From an uncultured virus (IMG/VR IMGVR_UViG_3300025120_014716) (taxonomy: Duplodnaviria > Heunggongvirae > Uroviricota > Caudoviricetes): 64,000 nucleotides of DNA. The notes under the pieces were generated by a model that searched no databases, was not told the origin of the DNA, and saw only the letters and a list, made by a program, of their open reading frames with translations. The position numbers and the translations under genes were made by a program. The stretch is from IMG/VR virus record IMGVR_UViG_3300025120_014716; one strand, given 5' to 3'. Of this stretch, positions 3,215 to 55,236 are shown one piece after another (positions within the stretch are counted from its first letter, which is position 1; each line of letters starts with the position of its first letter).

Positions 3215-4708
3215 ATGAGCAATGTTAGCGTAGATTTGGCTCAGTACGGTCATGGTGCAGGATTAGGGGATGATGCAATGGCATCAGTACCTCAGTCAGC
3301 AGAGGCAGTACATGAGTTATCAAAGGCACTTGAGGCAAGATCAATCACAGGTAGAGAAACTACTGGTTTGACAAATGCATCAGGAGCACCACTTAAGGTA
3401 GAATCTTTAGAGAAAAACTTAAAGGTTTTAACTTTTACAGAAAATGACATCAGAACCTGGAAAAGGATTCCAAAGGCACCTGCATTCAACACAGTTGAGG
3501 AATACTTGCAGTTACAGTCTTATGGAGCAGACAGAGGAGGTTTTAATAATGAAGGTGAATTACCTGAAGAGGAGGATGCAACTTACGTTAGAAAGGCTGA
3601 GTTAGTAAAATTCTTAGGAGTTACTAAGTCTGTTACTCATCCAATGACTCTTACAAAAACGTACATCGGAAACGCAGTACAAAGAGAAGTTACAAATGGT
3701 ATCCAGTGGATCCTTAGAAAAGCAAATAAAGGTTTGTTTTATGCAAATGCATCTTTGGTTCCTCAAGAATGGAATGGTTTATATACTCAGCATTATGTAA
3801 ATGGTGGTTATGCTAATTTAGATGCATACCAGGCAAACAATGAGTTGGTAGTTGATTTAAGAGGTAAGAGACTTAAGGAAGAGAATATTGAAACTGGAGC
3901 AGAGGCAATCGTGAGAGCGTTTGGTCAAGCAAATGTTTTAATTGCACCTCCAGTAGTTCACTCAAACTTTGTAAAGAACTTCCATGACAAAAAGTTAATC
4001 AATCCATCTTCAATTCAGGTAACTGGAGCGACAATGGGTCAAAAGGTTAATAAATTTGCATCTCAGTATGGTGAAATTGACCTTGAGTATGATATTTTTG
4101 CATCAAAGTCAGCACCAAAAGTATTAGGTGATGGAGCAACAAGCACAAAGGCACCTACAGCAGTTACATCAAACAGTGGGGCAACTCCTGTGGCAGCTAA
4201 CTCTCAGTTTGCAGCAGCAGATGCAGGTAACTACGTTTATGCAGTTACAGCTAAGAATAGATACGGTGAGGCAGCACCAGTGAGAATCACAGGTGGAGCA
4301 ATTGCAGTGGCAGCAGGTGATGGTACAGACTTGGAATTTACAGCAGGTGGTGGTACTTATGCAGCAACTTCATTTGTAGTTTACAGATCTAAAATTGGTG
4401 ATACAGGAGCAGCAGCTAAATTATACCCTATCATTGAGGTATCTGTAGCAGAAAAAGCAGCAGGTTTTGATGGAGCAGCAGCAACAAAGGTAAGGGACAT
4501 TAACAGATACCTTCCTGGAACTGAGGAGGCTTTATTGTTACAAGATTCATCAGACATTTATGAGTTCAAGCAATTGGCACCATTAATGAAAATGCCTCTT
4601 GCACAATTAAGTCCTGCACAAAGATTTATGGTCTTACTTTATGGTACTCCAATTATGTACCAACCTAAAAAGGTTGTAAGGTTCATTAATATCGGAACTG
4701 CATCTTAA
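3215..4708 (+). CDS. Major capsid protein (SPO1/Twort/A511-like)
   Basis: LKVESLEKNLKVLTF...AFNTVEEY and C-terminal LMKMPLAQ...VLLYGTP..YQPKK resemble Herelleviridae-type capsids; follows the protease and is followed by a terminator. Confidence 0.9.
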   Translation: MSNVSVDLAQYGHGAGLGDDAMASVPQSAEAVHELSKALEARSITGRETTGLTNASGAPLKVESLEKNLKVLTFTENDIRTWKRIPKAPAFNTVEEYLQLQSYGADRGGFNNEGELPEEEDATYVRKAELVKFLGVTKSVTHPMTLTKTYIGNAVQREVTNGIQWILRKANKGLFYANASLVPQEWNGLYTQHYVNGGYANLDAYQANNELVVDLRGKRLKEENIETGAEAIVRAFGQANVLIAPPVVHSNFVKNFHDKKLINPSSIQVTGATMGQKVNKFASQYGEIDLEYDIFASKSAPKVLGDGATSTKAPTAVTSNSGATPVAANSQFAAADAGNYVYAVTAKNRYGEAAPVRITGGAIAVAAGDGTDLEFTAGGGTYAATSFVVYRSKIGDTGAAAKLYPIIEVSVAEKAAGFDGAAATKVRDINRYLPGTEEALLLQDSSDIYEFKQLAPLMKMPLAQLSPAQRFMVLLYGTPIMYQPKKVVRFINIGTAS

Positions 4709-4732
4709 GAGTAGAATTTAATATTCACATAT

Positions 4733-4764
4733 AAAGGGAGGAGATCTATTCTCCTCCCTTTTTT
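4733..4764 (+). terminator. Intrinsic terminator after the capsid gene
   Basis: AAAGGGAGGAGA-5nt-TCTCCTCCCTTT followed by a T run. Confidence 0.85.
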
Positions 4765-4820
4765 GTTTTAATCATTTTTGCTACATTAGATGAAGTAAAA
4801 ATTTAAAAATAAATTAGACC

Positions 4821-5171
4821 ATGGTATTAATTAAGTCAAGTGTAAAAGGTCAGGTGGACTGTAAGGTTCAAATTTGCAATGAAGTAGTCACTTTTGATAG
4901 TAAAGGTATTGCAGAGGTTGGATCAAAAGAGAAGGCAAATGAAATTGTAAAAAAGTGGTCACCTTTAATTGTAATTATCAAAGGTGAGGTTAAGTCAAAA
5001 ATTGAGGATCCAATTGATGGTCCAGATGAGTCAGGTCAAGAAATTGATTTAAGTGAGAAAACAGTTGATGAACTAAGAGATGTTTGCAAAGCAATTGATC
5101 TACCTTCAAAAGAATGGAAGAGTCTTAAAAAGTCAGAACTTATAGAGTACATTGAGGAAAAAATAAAGTAA
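4821..5171 (+). CDS. Virion-module protein with C-terminal Rho-N/HeH-like helical motif
   Basis: DLSEKTVDELRDVCKAIDL...LKKSELIEYI; position after capsid gene. Confidence 0.55.
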   Translation: MVLIKSSVKGQVDCKVQICNEVVTFDSKGIAEVGSKEKANEIVKKWSPLIVIIKGEVKSKIEDPIDGPDESGQEIDLSEKTVDELRDVCKAIDLPSKEWKSLKKSELIEYIEEKIK

Positions 5172-5175
5172 GAAC

Positions 5176-5958
5176 ATGCCAAGTATAACACTAAGGGCAC
5201 CATATAAAAGAAACCAGGGAGTTATGTCTCCATCAGAAATGATAGAAACATATTTTTTTGGTATTAGTTTATGTGATCCAAATGGAGATAAGATGAGTTC
5301 TGATGTTATCCAGTTGTATCTGGATTCAGCAACAGATGAAATAGAAAATTATCTTGACATAAGGATCAAAAAGCAGATCATAGAAGAGGACCTTGGTTTT
5401 TGGATGGATGACTGGAAAAATTGGGGTTACATAAGAACTTCATATCCAGTGGTCAAACCTCACTTAATTGAGGGATTTATAAATGATGTTAGGCAGGTTA
5501 CATATCCTCAGTCCTGGCTCAGTGCCAGAAAGACAAATGATGGAAGGACCTATTTTAGGACCGTAAACCTGGTACCAACAAATGGAACTACAGGAACAAA
5601 TTCTCAAATTTACAGTGGAGTAACTCCACATTTGGGTTTTTATGGGAACAAACATATACCAAACTACTGGCAAATTACCTATTGTACAGGTTTTGATAAG
5701 GTCCCAGGTGACCTGTTAAATGCCATAGGTAAATTGGCAGCTATAAATGTCTTCCATATTATGGGAGATTTGATCCTGGGAGCAGGTATTGCATCTCAGT
5801 CTATTGGAATAGATGGACTTAGCCAGAGTATTGCAACAACATCATCAGCAACAAATGCAGGTTATGGTGCAAGGGTTTCAGGATACATTGCAGACTTAAA
5901 ATTGTCAATGCCAAAACTCAGAGCATTCTATAAAGGAATGAACTTAACCAGTGCTTAA
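5176..5958 (+). CDS. Head-tail adaptor (neck) protein
   Basis: YLDSATDEIENYLD, ITYCTGF..VP.DL..AI, SQSIGIDGLSQS; synteny. Confidence 0.75.
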   Translation: MPSITLRAPYKRNQGVMSPSEMIETYFFGISLCDPNGDKMSSDVIQLYLDSATDEIENYLDIRIKKQIIEEDLGFWMDDWKNWGYIRTSYPVVKPHLIEGFINDVRQVTYPQSWLSARKTNDGRTYFRTVNLVPTNGTTGTNSQIYSGVTPHLGFYGNKHIPNYWQITYCTGFDKVPGDLLNAIGKLAAINVFHIMGDLILGAGIASQSIGIDGLSQSIATTSSATNAGYGARVSGYIADLKLSMPKLRAFYKGMNLTSA

Positions 5959-5963
5959 ATGAT

Positions 5964-6755
5964 ATGCCAAATAAACCAATAACAATAACTCCTCCTCCAA
6001 GTTTGGTAGGAAAGCCAAGTGTTAACTTGGAGAAGTCAGACTTTGAGGCACTAATAGAGCAAAAGGGTTATGATGTTTATCATGACAGGGCATTAAAGTG
6101 TCCATGTAAGCCAAGATCAGGTGGAGATGCACAGTCAACCTGTAAAAATTGTGGAGGTTCTGGATGGATATATATAAATAGACATGAGACCAGGATGGTT
6201 ATCCAGTCCATGAATATAGATACAAAATATAAAGAGTGGACCGAAGAGAGGTTGGGGTCAGCCAGGATCACAGCCAGGGATATTGATCAGTTGGCTTTTA
6301 TGGACAGGATCACATTGATTAATGCAGAGGCAGTATTTAGTCAGGTCCTACATCCAAAAAAAGAACCTGGTAATGCATATTTTTATGCAACTACCAGGTA
6401 CAATATAAAAACAATAAAGTACATATTCCTATTCAAAGGGGTTGGTTTAGTTTTACAGAGGCTAAATGAAACAACTGATTATACTTTGGTAAAGAACCAA
6501 ATAAGACTTAATGCCTCATTTAGTTCTGAAGTTAATCCAACAATTACTGTAAGATACATACATGAGCCTGAATTTACGGTCCTGGATCTTTCAAGAGATC
6601 TTATGTACTCAACAATAAAAGATAAGTGTACCACAACTGGTAAAAAAGAGATAGCATTTCCAATATCTGCAGTAGCCAGGAGAAGTCACTATATGCCAGA
6701 TAGAGGAGACTTTGAAGATGATGACTTACTTGACAATAGCTTTACAGAGGTATGA
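5964..6755 (+). CDS. Head closure/neck protein with Cys motif
   Basis: CPC...CKNCGGSGW as in Twort-like neck proteins; synteny. Confidence 0.7.
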   Translation: MPNKPITITPPPSLVGKPSVNLEKSDFEALIEQKGYDVYHDRALKCPCKPRSGGDAQSTCKNCGGSGWIYINRHETRMVIQSMNIDTKYKEWTEERLGSARITARDIDQLAFMDRITLINAEAVFSQVLHPKKEPGNAYFYATTRYNIKTIKYIFLFKGVGLVLQRLNETTDYTLVKNQIRLNASFSSEVNPTITVRYIHEPEFTVLDLSRDLMYSTIKDKCTTTGKKEIAFPISAVARRSHYMPDRGDFEDDDLLDNSFTEV

Positions 6756-49315: not shown

Positions 49316-50377
49316 ATGAATAAGAAAGAAGTAAAAGACATAGGACTTGTAATAACAGATACCCATCTTAGTGAAGGTACTGAAAAGGTCAACATTAGTA
49401 TTTTTAGGCAGGCAATAGCAACATGTTTGGAGAGAGGTATTAAGAAAATATACCATATGGGAGATGCAATGGAGAGCAGAAAGGCACAAAGCCTCCAGGT
49501 CCTTAAGACATTTGGTAAGATATTGATGGAAATTCGTGAGGCAGGATTGGAAATTGATTTTATTCCAGGTAACCATGATAAGACAGACTACCAGTCTGAA
49601 AATTCATTCTTAGATCCATTTTCTTACCATCCAGGAGTAAATATATGGTCCAAGGGTACGGTCAATAGGGTAGGAGATAATTTGTCACTATTCCAGGTAC
49701 CTTTCTTTGATGAAAAGTCAGGTATGTATGGGGAAATGATAAAGCCATACCTGGACATTGCTGCACAGGAGAAAAAGCAAGGAATGACAAATATCCTTCT
49801 AACTCACATTGGAGTTAATGAGGCAGTGATGAATGGAGGATCTGTTATTGAAGGTCACCTGGATGGCAGCCTTTTTGATGCATTTGATAATGTTTATGTT
49901 GGTCACTATCATGACTACCAGGAGTTAAAAAAGGGTAAGATAGTATATGTAGGATCTGCATACCAGTCTAATTTTGGTGAGGATGATCGAAAGGGGTACC
50001 ATATCCTTAATTCAAAGGGTGGTATGGAGTTCATCCAGGCACACTTTCCAAAGTATATAAAGATCTCTATTGACATGGAAAAGGAAAAGGATTTTGATCT
50101 TACAGAAATTAAAAAGGAGTATGAGGGGTCTACTGACAATATCAGAATTGAGTTCACTGGGACTAAGGAGATGCTTGCTAAGGTTGACAAAAGAGAGTTT
50201 GAGGCACTTGGTATGGATGTAAAAAAGAAAGAGGAGTCAGTTGATGTATTGGATTATGATGACTCTGAGTCAACATTTACTAAAGAGTCTATAAAAGATG
50301 AGTGGGAAGTCTTTTCAAAAGATAGTATTGAAATAAAGTCAAAAGGTTTGGAATATATTGAGCCATTATTTATATAA
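49316..50377 (+). CDS. sbcD: SbcD/Mre11/gp47-like metallophosphoesterase nuclease
   Basis: TDTHL, MGD, PGNHD, LTH, GHYH, YVGSAYQSNFGED. Confidence 0.9.
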   Translation: MNKKEVKDIGLVITDTHLSEGTEKVNISIFRQAIATCLERGIKKIYHMGDAMESRKAQSLQVLKTFGKILMEIREAGLEIDFIPGNHDKTDYQSENSFLDPFSYHPGVNIWSKGTVNRVGDNLSLFQVPFFDEKSGMYGEMIKPYLDIAAQEKKQGMTNILLTHIGVNEAVMNGGSVIEGHLDGSLFDAFDNVYVGHYHDYQELKKGKIVYVGSAYQSNFGEDDRKGYHILNSKGGMEFIQAHFPKYIKISIDMEKEKDFDLTEIKKEYEGSTDNIRIEFTGTKEMLAKVDKREFEALGMDVKKKEESVDVLDYDDSESTFTKESIKDEWEVFSKDSIEIKSKGLEYIEPLFI

Positions 50378-50392
50378 ACAGTTAAGTTATTT

Positions 50393-51373
50393 ATGGGAAA
50401 ATTAGAGGATGTTTTTAAGAAAATAAACAAGACATACGGTGCAGGATCAGTTGGTAATTTGAATGACATGCCATTGCATGACATTGATACTATTTCATCA
50501 GGATCACTTGTATTAAATGATGCACTTGGAGTAGGTGGATGGGCAAAAGGTAGGATCACTGAAATATATGGTCCAGAGTCATCAGGAAAAACTACTTTGT
50601 GTATTCATGCCATTGCAGAATGCCAAAAGAAAGGAGGTAAGGCAGCCTTTATTGATATGGAGCATGCATTTGATAAAGAGTATGCAGAAAACCTGGGAGT
50701 TGATACAGATGCACTTATATTTGCTCAACCAGATTATGGAGAGCAGGCACTGGAGATGATAGACATGCTTATTGAGACAGGTGAGGTTGATCTATTAATT
50801 GTTGATTCTGTAGCTGCCATGATACCTAAAAGAGAACTTGAGGGGGAAATGGGAGATGCCAATGTTGGAGTCCTGGCAAAAATGATGTCACAGGCAATGA
50901 GAAAGTTGGTTGGAAAAGTTAGTAAGACAAATACTGCAATGATATTTATAAACCAACTGAGAGAAAAAATTGGAGTTATGTTTGGATCTCCTGAAGTTAC
51001 AACAGGAGGTAGAGCCTTAAAGTTTGCAGCCTCAGTAAGAGTTGACATCAGGAGAACTGGGAGCCTTAAAAAGGGAGAGGAGGTTATTGCAAATACTGTA
51101 AAGGTTAAGATCACCAAAAATAAAGTAGCACCTCCTTTTAAAATAGCATTACTGGAAATAGCATTTGGTGTTGGAGTTGACCTGGTTGCTGAGGTTTTAA
51201 CAATATGCATTGATGCTGATGTTGTTAAAAGAAATGGATCCTGGTATAGTTATGGTGACATAAAATTGGGTCAGGGGTTACCTGCAGTTAAAGAATTGCT
51301 AAGAGATAACCAGGAACTGTTTTGTGAGTTGAAAGATCTTGCTGAGATGGCATTTGAAGAGGCAAAAAAATAA
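50393..51373 (+). CDS. recA: RecA recombinase
   Basis: EIYGPESSGKTT, FIDMEHA, VDSVAA, FINQLREKIGVMFGSPE.TTGG.ALKF. Confidence 0.97.
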   Translation: MGKLEDVFKKINKTYGAGSVGNLNDMPLHDIDTISSGSLVLNDALGVGGWAKGRITEIYGPESSGKTTLCIHAIAECQKKGGKAAFIDMEHAFDKEYAENLGVDTDALIFAQPDYGEQALEMIDMLIETGEVDLLIVDSVAAMIPKRELEGEMGDANVGVLAKMMSQAMRKLVGKVSKTNTAMIFINQLREKIGVMFGSPEVTTGGRALKFAASVRVDIRRTGSLKKGEEVIANTVKVKITKNKVAPPFKIALLEIAFGVGVDLVAEVLTICIDADVVKRNGSWYSYGDIKLGQGLPAVKELLRDNQELFCELKDLAEMAFEEAKK

Positions 51374-51380
51374 TTAAAAT

Positions 51381-51585
51381 AAACTCTCCAAGCTAATGGA
51401 TAAGCGAGTGAATAGGCACATCAACTTAGAAAGATTTAACTCAAAAGTATCTTTAAAGAAAACTATGAGGGAAGTACGTTCACAACACTTCCAAGAGTGT
51501 TAGCTTGCCTGAAAAGGCTTTATGAAGTTAGGTGGCACTGCGTTGTCCGTTACTGTCAATCCTACTTGGAGGACTTGGAGAGTTT
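51381..51585 (+). ncRNA. Candidate ~205-nt structured RNA of unknown class
   Basis: 12-bp terminal stem AAACTCTCCAAG/CTTGGAGAGTTT enclosing nested helices with G-U pairs, a GAAA-tetraloop hairpin and two complementary loops; terminator follows. Confidence 0.7.
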
Positions 51586-51589
51586 TTAT

Positions 51590-51626
51590 AAAGGAATTAA
51601 CTGAAAAGTTTTTTCCTTTTTTTTTT
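51590..51626 (+). terminator. Terminator after the structured RNA
   Basis: AAAGGAA..AACT-GAAA-AGTT..TTCC followed by T10. Confidence 0.65.
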
Positions 51627-51633
51627 CATATTA

Positions 51634-51664
51634 TTTGGTGGTTAAACAAATTTGTTTATCTTTG
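51634..51664 (+). promoter_or_regulatory. Bacteroidota primary-sigma promoter
   Basis: TTTG (-33), 19 nt, TATCTTTG (-7). Confidence 0.75.
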
Positions 51665-51711
51665 TAGAGGTGATGGGGGTGAGAGGTGAGTGAGTTCTTT
51701 GAGAAATTATC

Positions 51712-51853
51712 TGGTTAGTGATGGTGGGTTGTTGATTGTCGGAGGTCTGTAGAGGAGTAATTGCCTTTCCTTGTAGTTGCAAATGCAAGAGAACTAAAAA
51801 ACAATTTTCAATTTGCTTGGTTTTCACAAGAGGGTTCGATTCCCTCATAACCA
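51712..51853 (+). ncRNA. Expanded tRNA-like RNA (not a canonical tRNA)
   Basis: T-arm GAGGG-TTCGATT-CCCTC; TGGTTA/TAACCA acceptor-like stem; ~110-nt multi-arm interior. Confidence 0.6.
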
Positions 51854-51894
51854 ACTATTTTATATTATTATTAACAATTTAAAATTTAATTATT

Positions 51895-52281
51895 ATGTCA
51901 TTTATTTTTGTAAAAAGTCAACAGCAGCAAATTTTTGAAAAACTTCAGTTGATAGTTGATTTGGGACTGGACAAAATTGTTAAGGTTCCTAAAAAATTCC
52001 AGGATTTTAAATTTGAGATCAAAATGGTTACTGGAGGTATTCAAATCAGTTTTAGATTTGATCATGTTTACTTTCACTACAAACACTTTATTGGTGATGA
52101 CTTCTTTCTTTTTGAGGAAAGCTACAGCCAGGCAAGTGGTAGACAGTGCAAGAGTTACAGAGAGGGTCAAAAAGGTTTGGCAAAGGCAGAGGCATTTATT
52201 GAAGAGGTTGCTAAAAAGATTCAAAAGTCTGAAAGGTCTGAGAGTTTCCAAATTCAAAAAGCCATTGAAGAGTTGGTGTAA
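51895..52281 (+). CDS. Hypothetical protein
   Basis: ORF with AT-rich leader downstream of the promoter. Confidence 0.6.
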   Translation: MSFIFVKSQQQQIFEKLQLIVDLGLDKIVKVPKKFQDFKFEIKMVTGGIQISFRFDHVYFHYKHFIGDDFFLFEESYSQASGRQCKSYREGQKGLAKAEAFIEEVAKKIQKSERSESFQIQKAIEELV

Positions 52282-52304
52282 AAAAATTGTTTAAATTTAT
52301 TCAC

Positions 52305-52333
52305 TAAACTTTAAAGTTTATTTATTACATTTA
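52305..52333 (+). promoter_or_regulatory. Perfect 16-bp palindrome plus -7-like box
   Basis: TAAACTTTAAAGTTTA, 5 nt, TACATTTA. Confidence 0.6.
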
Positions 52334-52358
52334 CAAAACAGATTGAAAAAAGATAGTT

Positions 52359-52673
52359 ATGAAAGCAAAAGTTTTAATTTACCCAGATGTTCAAGAAAAA
52401 GGAAGGTTGGTTGTAAAGGTTGAAGAGAAAAAGCCAGAGTTGCCTTCTATGGGTTATGGTTTGATAAAGCATGATCCTCTTCAGATTGCAATTGATGTCT
52501 CCAGGTTACCAGAGCAGGATGATCCTGGTGCAAAATTCACTGCATACACTTTGAAAAGCAGTGGTAAAAGAGTCAACATTGGAGGTGATGTTGAGGTTAT
52601 TTATTCCTGTGGAGGTTCTGCAGTTTTAGATGGTGGTTACTTCCCATCAGTCCAAGAGTTAAAATTATCCTAA
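52359..52673 (+). CDS. Hypothetical protein
   Basis: Clean ORF after promoter-like element. Confidence 0.6.
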   Translation: MKAKVLIYPDVQEKGRLVVKVEEKKPELPSMGYGLIKHDPLQIAIDVSRLPEQDDPGAKFTAYTLKSSGKRVNIGGDVEVIYSCGGSAVLDGGYFPSVQELKLS

Positions 52674-52742
52674 AAATTACAAATAAAAATGCACTGTACA
52701 TTTTGTATGGTGCATTTAACTATAATTAATAAATACATAAAG

Positions 52743-53273
52743 ATGGTAAGTCCAAATAAAACAAAAGATCCATATGCAGTTGAGAATTTATTCTGCAAAC
52801 CAATGGACAAAATTAAAAAAGTTAAGTTAACAAGTGATCAACGTAGTTTAGTAGTCAGTTTATTAATGGCAAAGGTTACCAAAGACTCCACAGTTGATCG
52901 TATATCAAAGGCTGCAGAATCTTCAGGCATTTGGTACTATCCAGTGTTCAGGGGTAGAATTGAGGCAATGGGTTACCAGGTTGATAGGGAGACAGAGGCA
53001 ATGGTAAATATTGGACTTACAAAAAGTGTAGGTGATGCAGTAATGTATGCCAATTACCTGGCATATAAAGCAAAAAAATGTGGTGTGTCAAAAATTGGAC
53101 TTGTAAAGGAGTTATGTGAGTGGTTTCAGGATGGGTTCCCAAAACACTCTGAGTTAGATAAGGTGTGGTCATTTCAAAAAGTACATACAGATATACCAGG
53201 AACCTCAGACAATTTACTGGATTATCCAGAGGCATCAAAAAGTATTTATTGTAAAAAAGAAAAGCAGTCATAA
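52743..53273 (+). CDS. Hypothetical protein (ATG at 52743 preferred to 52689)
   Basis: ORF coupled to sbcC; A-rich leader before 52743. Confidence 0.6.
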   Translation: MVSPNKTKDPYAVENLFCKPMDKIKKVKLTSDQRSLVVSLLMAKVTKDSTVDRISKAAESSGIWYYPVFRGRIEAMGYQVDRETEAMVNIGLTKSVGDAVMYANYLAYKAKKCGVSKIGLVKELCEWFQDGFPKHSELDKVWSFQKVHTDIPGTSDNLLDYPEASKSIYCKKEKQS

Positions 53274-53274
53274 T

Positions 53275-55236
53275 ATGTGGAAGTTAAAAGAGTTAAGATT
53301 GACCAATTTCATGAGTCACAAAGATTCAGTTTTAAATATGCCATCAAATGATGCCCATATGATTATTGGGATAAATAATGATGATGATGGTCAGGAAAGC
53401 AATGGATCAGGAAAGTCAGTTTGTAATGAGGCAGTGGCACTTGCTCTTACAGGATCTGCATTAAGAAAGGTTAAAGATTGTGATCTCATTCATTATGGAG
53501 AGGATGAGGCTCAGGTTACTCAAACACTTGAAAATAAGTCACAGGATAAAACCATGGCTATCACCAGGACTCTTTTTGCTAAAAAAAGCAAGTCAAGTAC
53601 TCTTTATGTAGAGGTGAATGGAGTTGAGGTAACTACATTTCCAACTGTAAAGGATGGTAATTTATGGATCCTGGATCAAATTGGAGTATCCAGAGAAGAC
53701 TTATTGAATTATTACCTGGTAAGTGAAAAGTCATCATCATTTTTCACTGCATCAGATACTATTAAAAAGCAAATTGTTGCCAGGTTTAGTAACACTGACA
53801 TATTAATACCTATAAAAGAAAAAGTTGTAAATGATACCAAGTCCCTGGTCCAGGTAAGGGAGGCATTGGATTTACAGTTGGTAAAGTTACAGGAAAGGTG
53901 TGATGTCTACAGGGAGCAGTTGACCAATGCCTCAAATCAAGATGCTGAGAGAATTAAGCAGGGAAGGATTGACATGATCCAAAGATCTATTGATGACTAT
54001 GCCAAAAAAGTAAAAGAAAATGAGGATAGTATAATTGCCCATGAAAAGCAGATGCCCATTCATAACCAGGAGATGGACCTACTAAAAAAGGAATTGTCCC
54101 AGGTCCCAGAACCTGCAGATCATAGTGCAGACATTAAAGAAATTGAAGATGTTTTGAGCCAGGCACAAAATGAGGCAGAGGTGTCTATACTGGCAATAAA
54201 AGAGGCAAGGTCTAATCTGAGAGATGTTGAAGGGTTTAAGTCAGATGCAGAGGCAAAAATAAAGTCATCCATCCAATGTCCAAAGTGTGATCATAGTTTT
54301 ATACTCAGAGACAAAAACTTTAATATTCATGAGACAAGGGAGTCTTTATTTGAAATGGACTCACTTATTAATTCATTTGAAAATGAGATCCAGGACCATG
54401 ATACTAAAAGAGTTGAGTCAGAGGGACTGGTTGATGAGGCAAGGTCCAGTATAAAAGGTTTAAGATCAGATATGCAGCAGCATGAGGTTGCCAGGAATAA
54501 AGTAAACAGAAAAATAAGGCAGTTACAATTTACCATTGATGACATAAATGATCAAATAAAAAGATGTACTTCAATTATCCTGGAGTCTAAAAATAAAAGC
54601 CTGGAAGGTTTTGACAGCATAGATAGAGTAAGGTCTGAAAAGATTGAGGATCCTCAAATTGAGATAAACAAATCAATTAAAGTAGTTGAGGTCCAGATCC
54701 AGGATAAGGTGGATGAGATTGACATAGCCAAAAATAACATTGTTAAGGCTAATGAATTTCAGGCTATATTTACAAAGTTTATGACTCACCTATCAAATAA
54801 AGCAATAAAGTCAATTGAGTCCAGGGTAAATAGTTACCTGGAGTCTATGGGTAGTAATTTAATGGTACAATTTGAAGGGTATAAGGTTTTATCAACTGGT
54901 AAGATCAAAGAAAATATATCAATTGTTGTATTAAGAAATGGTATGCCAGAGTCATTTTTTGACAGTTACTCAAAAGGTGAGAGAGGTAGAATTAATGTAG
55001 CAGGTATCCTGGCATTAAATGATCTTTTAAACTCAAGTTCAAGTCCAGGATGTGGTTTAGATTTCGTTTGTCTTGATGAGGCTATGGATGGAATTGATAG
55101 CCTGGGAGTAGGATCTGTTATGAATGCCTTAAATACTTTGGGACAGCCAATTTTAGCAGTATCACACATAGAACCAAAGGAGCCATATAGAAACACAATT
55201 TATTGTACAAAAGACAAAGGGGTATCAACTATTTAA
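53275..55236 (+). CDS. sbcC: SbcC/Rad50/gp46-like SMC ATPase
   Basis: NFMSH, SNGSGKS, coiled coil with CPKC hook, YSKGE signature, CLDEAMDGID, VSH. Confidence 0.92.
   Translation: MWKLKELRLTNFMSHKDSVLNMPSNDAHMIIGINNDDDGQESNGSGKSVCNEAVALALTGSALRKVKDCDLIHYGEDEAQVTQTLENKSQDKTMAITRTLFAKKSKSSTLYVEVNGVEVTTFPTVKDGNLWILDQIGVSREDLLNYYLVSEKSSSFFTASDTIKKQIVARFSNTDILIPIKEKVVNDTKSLVQVREALDLQLVKLQERCDVYREQLTNASNQDAERIKQGRIDMIQRSIDDYAKKVKENEDSIIAHEKQMPIHNQEMDLLKKELSQVPEPADHSADIKEIEDVLSQAQNEAEVSILAIKEARSNLRDVEGFKSDAEAKIKSSIQCPKCDHSFILRDKNFNIHETRESLFEMDSLINSFENEIQDHDTKRVESEGLVDEARSSIKGLRSDMQQHEVARNKVNRKIRQLQFTIDDINDQIKRCTSIILESKNKSLEGFDSIDRVRSEKIEDPQIEINKSIKVVEVQIQDKVDEIDIAKNNIVKANEFQAIFTKFMTHLSNKAIKSIESRVNSYLESMGSNLMVQFEGYKVLSTGKIKENISIVVLRNGMPESFFDSYSKGERGRINVAGILALNDLLNSSSSPGCGLDFVCLDEAMDGIDSLGVGSVMNALNTLGQPILAVSHIEPKEPYRNTIYCTKDKGVSTI

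Follow-up and report, generated by a model that had tools for sequence, protein, structure and literature searches.

In the present study, we show that a marine phage genome carries a member of a conserved, strand-specific and single-copy structured RNA family that occurs in diverse marine phages. The analysed stretch of DNA, 64,000 nucleotides from an uncultured virus (hereafter the window), contains the RNA element at positions 51380-51588 of the + strand (209 nt), where it matches R1, the covariance model of the family, over positions 1-201 of 201 (136.2 bits, E 3e-28). Pattern scans of IMG/VR yielded 19 further distinct relatives, giving 20 sequences with the window, and the lengths of the family RNAs range from 162 to 240 nt. 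A preliminary description of this DNA had proposed that the phage makes a functional non-coding RNA, and had assigned it to no known class. This proposal is supported by the lack of an Rfam match, by compensatory changes in the 19 other viral contigs, by the absence of a conserved open reading frame (ORF), and by a complementarity between two loops that is kept throughout the family.

The window derives from a marine phage in which all of the long ORFs lie on the + strand; these include ORFs for a head protease, a major head protein, tail proteins, a large terminase, a DnaB-like helicase and DNA polymerase, as well as thymidylate synthase, SbcD-like and SbcC-like nuclease subunits and a Dda-like helicase. 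The viral record G001 is 100% identical to the window over 51300-51900, and the sequencing runs listed as containing this stretch are marine or seawater metagenomes, with no RNA run among them. The gene directly upstream of the RNA was expected to be recA, and the ORF at 50393-51373 (+ strand), which lies outside the RNA family, indeed matches Pfam RecA at 1.2e-117. The RNA element starts 6 nt after recA, in a 520-nt gap that extends to the next ORF at 51895. In the region 49316-55236, recA, the RNA region and three small ORFs split the SbcD-like gene (49316-50374, before recA) from the SbcC-like gene (53275-55233, after recA and the RNA region). The same order of SbcD-like and SbcC-like genes was seen in contig L001, where a tRNA island occupies the site of the RNA.

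By comparison, the members share a common layout. Helix P1 (12-13 bp) links the two ends of the RNA around a domain of 140-220 nt and leads into a U-rich tail; a U-run stands behind P1 in all members, and all 20 finish with GTTT and then T- or A-rich sequence. In the window, the 5' strand of P1, AAACTCTCCAAG (51381-51392), is a perfect 12-bp complement to 51574-51585, and the 3' strand, CTTGGAGAGTTT, together with the beginning of the tail occupies 51574-51588. Inside P1 lies a nearly invariant arm composed of a CUAAU/GUUAG helix (P2a), a purine-rich GGAU/UGAA internal loop between the two short helices, and an AAGC/GCUU helix (P2b), which leads to a three-way junction. The 5' side of this arm (CTAAT, GGAT, AAGC; 51393-51405) is a nearly invariant block in the family alignment A3, and the 3' side (GCTT, TGAA, GTTAG; 51503-51531) was placed by the same alignment. 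One branch of the junction is a hairpin with a GUGA/UCAC closing helix and an interior that is unrelated between members. This variable hairpin, V1, is closed by GTGAA/TTCAC at 51408-51483 of the window; the insert measures 11-73 nt in the family, the interior, 51412-51479 in the window, is replaced by 26 or 29 unrelated letters in other contigs, and the isolated V1 segment folds closed in 15 of 20 cases. The second branch is formed by the invariant hairpin ACACU-(U/A)(U/A/C)CCAAG-AGUGU, represented in the window by AACACT-TCCAAG-AGTGTT (51484-51501) with the loop CCAAG at 51491-51495. On the 3' side of the arm follow a second variable domain, V2 (51532-51559; 29-91 nt in the family), which cannot be aligned across the family, then a small hairpin, UCC-ACUUGGA-GGA, and finally the 3' strand of P1. 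In the window this small hairpin is TCCT-ACTTGG-AGGA (51560-51573), with a CTTGG (51565-51569) that complements the CCAAG loop.

In alignment A3, 97.1% of 747 cells are paired, vs a shuffle mean of 94.7% (reached by 0 of 500 shuffles) and 32-49% with the partners slid, and nine pairs are changed on both sides vs 2.4 in shuffles (0 of 500); since A3 was fitted to the model, such pair counts are biased towards the structure. In P1, 7 of 13 pairs covary and 98.8% of the cells are paired; this helix of the preliminary description is supported by comparison across the family. The fifth pair of the V1 closing helix also varies (UA in nine members, AU in four, CG in one). Within the arm, P2a is paired in 91% of the cells and P2b in 100%, with wobble changes and no double change. 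In the conserved hairpin, another of the helices proposed earlier, all stem pairs except the closing one are invariant in 20 of 20 members, an invariance that, like that of the other invariant blocks, was partly fixed by the search patterns. Because the arm helices and the conserved hairpin show only wobble changes or none, covariation does not prove those helices. Two candidate pairings examined by eye were rejected: a switch pairing of the 5' strand of P1 with the 3' hairpin is broken by L185, and a helix joining the first part of V2 to the TATTCC block contains uncompensated G-to-A changes. The 3' hairpin contains a segment that nearly duplicates the P1 3' strand, but this segment fails to replace that strand in L185, and there is thus no conserved alternative pairing.

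A possible kissing loop between CCAAG and CTTGG had been suggested from the window sequence. All five pairs of this predicted loop-loop contact can form in 20 of 20 members, and one of them has changed twice, from CG (18 members) to a UG wobble in L148 and, on both sides, to UA in L253; these loop variants come from members retrieved through other blocks. P1 contains a CCAAG/CUUGG segment of its own, which varies freely with compensation (for example in L127, L132, L151, L155 and L185), whereas the loop copy and its partner stay fixed. This difference fits a mutual constraint between the two loops.

All complementary segments listed in the preliminary description are present in the window, and the minimum free energy (MFE) fold of 51375-51630 includes P1, the two additional helices designated P2 and P3 there, the three internal hairpins and the 3' hairpin. 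The energy of this fold is -70.9 kcal/mol vs a shuffle mean of -53.1 (z -3.66), and none of 200 shuffles was as stable. For the exact 205 nt of the element the energy is -59.6 kcal/mol, with z scores of -3.06 on the + strand and -1.97 on the - strand. However, 6 of 1595 phage windows of 205 nt reach -59.6 kcal/mol or lower, so the element is unusual but not unique, and it has a residual of about -2.5 sd in a regression of phage windows on GC content. Mostly coding windows at about 4561-4925, 5601-5805 and 6281-6565 have residuals of -2.8 to -4.2 sd, folding as well as or better than the element for their GC content. Furthermore, the window contains 28 inverted repeats of at least 12 nt within 400 nt. 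The fold of the element is thus in the tail of the distribution without being unique in this phage, and thermodynamics alone provides modest evidence.

Not every part of the fold in this phage belongs to the family. The 3' strands of P2 and P3 lie here in the non-conserved V2, and these helices proved specific to this phage. Forcing the family structure on the window costs 11.8 kcal/mol relative to its MFE, and the corresponding cost (alignment A2) is about 10 kcal/mol for L115 and 0-6.7 kcal/mol for the other 17 members. Thus, P2 and P3 of the window may be either an alternative fold of the element or incidental complementarity. The GCCT-GAAA-AGGC hairpin (51507-51518), located within the 3' side of the arm, is present as described but is an optional insert, shared by the window and L140 and absent from the other members. 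A terminator had been placed after the element; an AT-rich hairpin followed by a T-run does appear in the MFE fold at about 51590-51626 (+ strand), but it is not a conserved part of the family, and a consensus terminator scan of 50300-52400 called none.

The variable parts V1 and V2 are distributed as a mosaic, in that members share one of them but not the other (L114/L115, L128/L131, L148/L158; L114/L122/L163, L117/L131, L151/L181). Judging from the sequences, it looks as if recombination had taken place within the conserved blocks.

The lead to the family came from seawater contigs that match the window at 51383-51411 and from 51480 onward, at a summed depth of about 40-100 vs 7.7 on the recA flank, and that differ from this phage in their upstream context. 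Relatives were sought in IMG/VR by patterns built on the conserved blocks, and chance matches were discarded after inspection. Such chance matches, in coding DNA, made up 18 of 31 loci in one scan and 1 of 6, 3 of 5, 6 of 9 and 8 of 9 new contigs in others; a 16-mer from the 5' block gave chance hits only (L094-L110). One of the chance-matched viral contigs, L196, has a CRISPR-like array at about 1360-1800, with a repeat of about 47 nt and spacers of about 30 nt. Model R1 was built from 19 family sequences and scores all 20 members at 122-174 bits. The window scores 136.2 bits on the + strand vs 18.6 on the - strand, and in five large phage records (69-172 kb) the model finds one strong match apiece; a second, weak match of 21.8 bits was seen in G004.

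Searches in other collections gave no further members. The loci around recA relatives (27 from IMG/VR and 65 from metagenomes, identity at most 60%) contain no homologue detectable by blastn, nhmmer or covariance model, and a covariance-model hit in L029 (E 0.36) was treated as noise. With 92 such loci lacking a copy, the RNA is not tied to recA. Neither the window stretch nor the element of L148 had a blastn match in a cultured-phage collection of 50,697 records, and the core 22-mer had no hit in prokaryotes represented by one genome per species (185,579 species). A degenerate core pattern hit prokaryote genomes three times, each hit matching part of the model only, and the sole one inspected (L236) looks coding.

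The comparison of members indicates at what level the element works. The alignment contains 32 G-U cells vs no A-C cells, all of the 19 copies checked run in the same direction as the flanking ORFs, and L253 runs in the same direction as its flanking tRNAs. Together, these observations point to an RNA-level structure on the sense strand. It had been noted that absent covariation, or conservation of an ORF alone, would speak against an RNA; as shown above P1 covaries, and a coding reading was rejected since no ORF is conserved in 19 members. An ORF of at least 25 codons is missing in 9 of the 19, and in the others the frame and length differ. The presence of one strong match in each of the five large records argues against a repeat or a miniature transposon; the many copies per genome expected of miniature inverted repeats were not seen in these five records. 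No reverse-transcriptase family, as expected of a retron, was among the Pfam hits of 113 flanking ORFs or 10 window ORFs.

The neighbours of the RNA differ between members. They are RecA in the window, RecT with an exonuclease and a DnaA-like HTH protein in L127, a VRR-NUC protein and a Sak annealing protein in L151, DnaB in L128, a DnaA-like HTH protein in L158, DpnD/PcfM-like proteins in L114, L140 and L163, and homing-endonuclease-type ORFs in L132 and L185. In five contigs the RNA adjoins a cassette of P-II, ammonium transporter (Amt) and BBP2-porin genes; it precedes this cassette in G002, G003 and G005 and follows it in G004 and L115. The cassette is located at 161828-164496 in G002, at 50754-53365 and again at 95569-98164 in G003, at 90558-93178 in G004, and at 84918-87468 in G005. 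The Amt proteins of the cassette-bearing phage records are about 88-90% identical. No protein cluster is common to all five large records; clusters present in four records number only five, and the P-II/Amt/porin cassette accounts for three of these. Viral P-II genes adjoining amt have already been described for ocean viruses (10.1101/053090). The position of the RNA was also inspected for that of a riboswitch, and it was not consistently upstream of functionally related genes.

The RNA is packed closely between its neighbours: 12 of 19 copies start at most 21 nt past the upstream stop codon, an ORF starts within 46 nt downstream in 9 of 18 copies, and in most copies a recognisable promoter is lacking. 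Of the 20 members, four have flanking tRNA genes, which is a tendency only; these lie downstream at a distance of 2 nt in L160 and 58 nt in L148, on both sides in L253 and upstream in L155. In L132, V2 itself contains a T-arm-like hairpin.

In the window, the RNA is followed by a tRNA-like unit (region 51634-51860). A promoter-like pair, TTTG ... TAtcTTTG, was seen at 51634-51666, and the unit has a perfect T-arm, GAGGGTTCGATTCCCTC (51829-51845). With default settings ARAGORN called no tRNA or tmRNA gene in the window; with a relaxed threshold and introns allowed, it called tRNA-Glu(ttc) at about 51726-51855 with a 51-nt insert. The tmRNA model had a single hit in the window (15.2 bits at 51789-51847), outside the RNA element, and the fold of 51634-51860 was no better than those of shuffles. 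Within the element, neither ARAGORN nor the Rfam models detected tRNA or tmRNA features. In the recA-related contigs L001 and L029, tRNA genes lie between recA and the SbcC-like gene, where the window has the RNA and then the tRNA-like unit. These tRNA islands after recA (L001 4352-4990; L029 2190-3280) include some tRNA-like genes with long inserts, such as tRNA-Arg(tcg) with a 130-nt insert at 4526-4747 of L001 (ARAGORN with introns); such genes may be intron-bearing phage tRNAs.

The phage of the window is extremely depleted in CpG, with 151 CG in 64 kb (observed/expected 0.078). GpC is 0.86 in G001, the record near-identical to the window, and CpG is 0.36-0.70 in four other phages carrying the RNA. 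The preliminary description had pointed to four CG dinucleotides in the element as retained in a CG-poor genome. The excess itself stands, as only 0.55% of 205-nt windows have at least four CG, but the positions of those CG vary among relatives. With a CpG of 0.50, the element is among the few CG-richer spots in the window, and since it is CG-richer than the CpG-depleted phage around it, it may have arrived recently in this phage.

What could such an RNA do? Our preferred reading, to which we attach about an even chance, is that it is a stable, probably trans-acting phage RNA with a predicted loop-locked invariant core that acts on a conserved partner. The single strong copy in each large record, the lack of a protein cluster common to the five, and the higher depth of the conserved blocks in seawater suggest a dedicated gene rather than a repeat, and the tRNA genes beside several members fit the company of stable RNA genes. 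The tight spacing to the upstream stop codon and downstream ORF also fits a cis-acting intergenic element. One such element would be a module at the end of messages, serving as a partial terminator or a block to 3'-exonucleases, which would stabilise the upstream message and insulate gene cassettes. The short distance from the upstream stop codon in 12 of 19 copies, the U-run behind P1, a canonical-looking hairpin with a T-run no more than about 100 nt further on (L114/L163, L132, L182 and the window itself) and the location of the RNA at either border of the P-II/Amt/porin cassette agree with this. However, many operon ends of a genome should carry a terminator or stabiliser of general use, whereas this RNA occurs once in each of five records, about 100 nt kept near-invariant in phages that share almost no proteins far exceeds the needs of a terminator, and the tRNA gene 2 nt downstream in L160 argues against efficient termination there. 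We therefore consider such a module unlikely, with an appreciable chance nonetheless. A related possibility is a ligand-sensing, riboswitch-like attenuator in which stabilisation of P1, next to the U-tail, would stop transcription before the downstream genes. P1 directly followed by the U-run resembles a terminator made of the closing helix of an aptamer, and in G002, G003 and G005 the RNA precedes the P-II/Amt/porin operon; but the cassette comes before it in G004 and L115, the genes that follow the RNA are unrelated from member to member (exonuclease, Sak, small ORFs, tRNAs, P-II), and the 3'-hairpin segment that nearly duplicates the P1 3' strand cannot substitute for that strand in L185 (by eye, A3), so that an attenuator seems very improbable.

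Small ribozymes generally have a conserved core, optional variable stems and a tertiary loop-loop contact. The present RNA shares these features, with a highly conserved core, and it has little spacer within operons, where a discrete RNA would have to be processed out; it could thus be a self-cleaving or other catalytic RNA that excises itself from polycistronic transcripts. This is improbable in our view, as no Rfam ribozyme matched at E up to 0.5-10 and the three-way junction has almost no conserved unpaired nucleotides. The terminal inverted repeats, the adjoining replication and recombination modules (RecA, RecT, Sak, DnaB, DnaA-like HTH), the mosaic exchange of variable parts and the occurrence in unrelated phages could instead indicate an element acting as DNA, such as an origin of replication, a site of recombination or integration, or a mobile element of the miniature inverted-repeat type. 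Yet duplex DNA is symmetric, whereas the G-U excess over A-C and the strong strand preference of the model are not; compensatory changes occur in an internal hairpin as well as at the ends, the element is single-copy in 5 of 5 genomes, and no integrase, transposase or reverse transcriptase was hit in the 113 flanking ORFs (Pfam). We regard a DNA-level role as highly unlikely.

Rfam 15 gave no gathering-score match in the whole window and none overlapping the element at E up to 10, and in 18 member loci two tRNAs were the only matches at E up to 0.5; the claim that the element belongs to no known class is thus supported by covariance models for the window and its relatives. Judged by Rfam 15, a search of literature text (not of sequence) and part of the supplements of PMC10690425, the family is previously unclassified. 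The latter paper, by Fremin et al. (2023), is a catalogue of candidate structured RNAs from IMG/VR with motifs of 29-151 nt. It resembles our study in its data source and in the use of covariation evidence in intergenic regions of uncultivated phages, but its motifs are shorter than the 162-240 nt of the present family. Six motif strings and six contig numbers had no match in six text files of the supplements, the two largest files being outside this search, and the catalogue might contain fragments of this family.

GOLLD and ROOL are large phage and prophage RNAs of unknown function, often located by tRNA genes, with a conserved core, a poorly conserved linker sometimes containing a tRNA, and kissing loops of importance to their architecture (10.1101/2024.12.08.627333). 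The present family is likewise phage-encoded (20 of 20 members in viral contigs), with tRNA genes nearby in 4 of 20, a variable part and candidate kissing loops; however, GOLLD and ROOL exceed about 500-800 nt vs 162-240 nt here, and there is neither sequence likeness nor a covariance-model match. In YrlA, a bacterial Y RNA and partner of Ro, an end-to-end stem closes a module able to contain tRNA-like parts. The present RNA is similar in that a stem of its two ends closes a module that can hold tRNA-like parts, but it has no Rfam match and no TROVE/Ro gene accompanies it: PF05731 was found in 0 of 5 element-bearing records (29-87% complete) and was detected in control genomes. The tRNA cluster of phage T4 encodes small stable RNAs of unknown function. 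These are also phage-encoded and co-located with tRNA genes, a likeness by description only, but the cultured-phage collection had no blastn match to the present family.

If the RNA is indeed a stable, trans-acting molecule, it would be co-transcribed with its neighbours in a region of replication, recombination and auxiliary genes, and would be trimmed or terminated at P1 and the U-tail, with tRNA-processing enzymes possibly acting in members flanked by tRNA genes. An RNA of 160-240 nt would then build up in stable form, and its invariant core, putatively locked by the loop-loop contact, would be the working surface, acting in trans on a conserved partner from the host or the phage. By analogy with the larger phage RNAs, the gene could also be a horizontally exchanged one whose CCAAG/CTTGG pair forms between molecules, producing an RNA-only oligomer, a small counterpart of ROOL and GOLLD, that captures or shields tRNAs or another host component; we give this a small chance.

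That about 100 nt of core sequence are preserved with hardly a changed letter, among phages without a protein cluster common to the five large genomes, points to strong selection, whose target would be an RNA in contact with a conserved feature of the host or of infection biology. The family is abundant in seawater metagenomes relative to this phage, and its size of 162-240 nt suits direct structural and biochemical work, for which the loop-loop pair is a ready test. Phage RNAs of unknown function that unrelated phages conserve are few, and the present family is a well-supported addition to them. Since its neighbours include genes for tRNAs, recombination and nitrogen uptake, the partner of the RNA could bring to light a novel means by which marine phages deal with host translation, RNA processing or metabolism.
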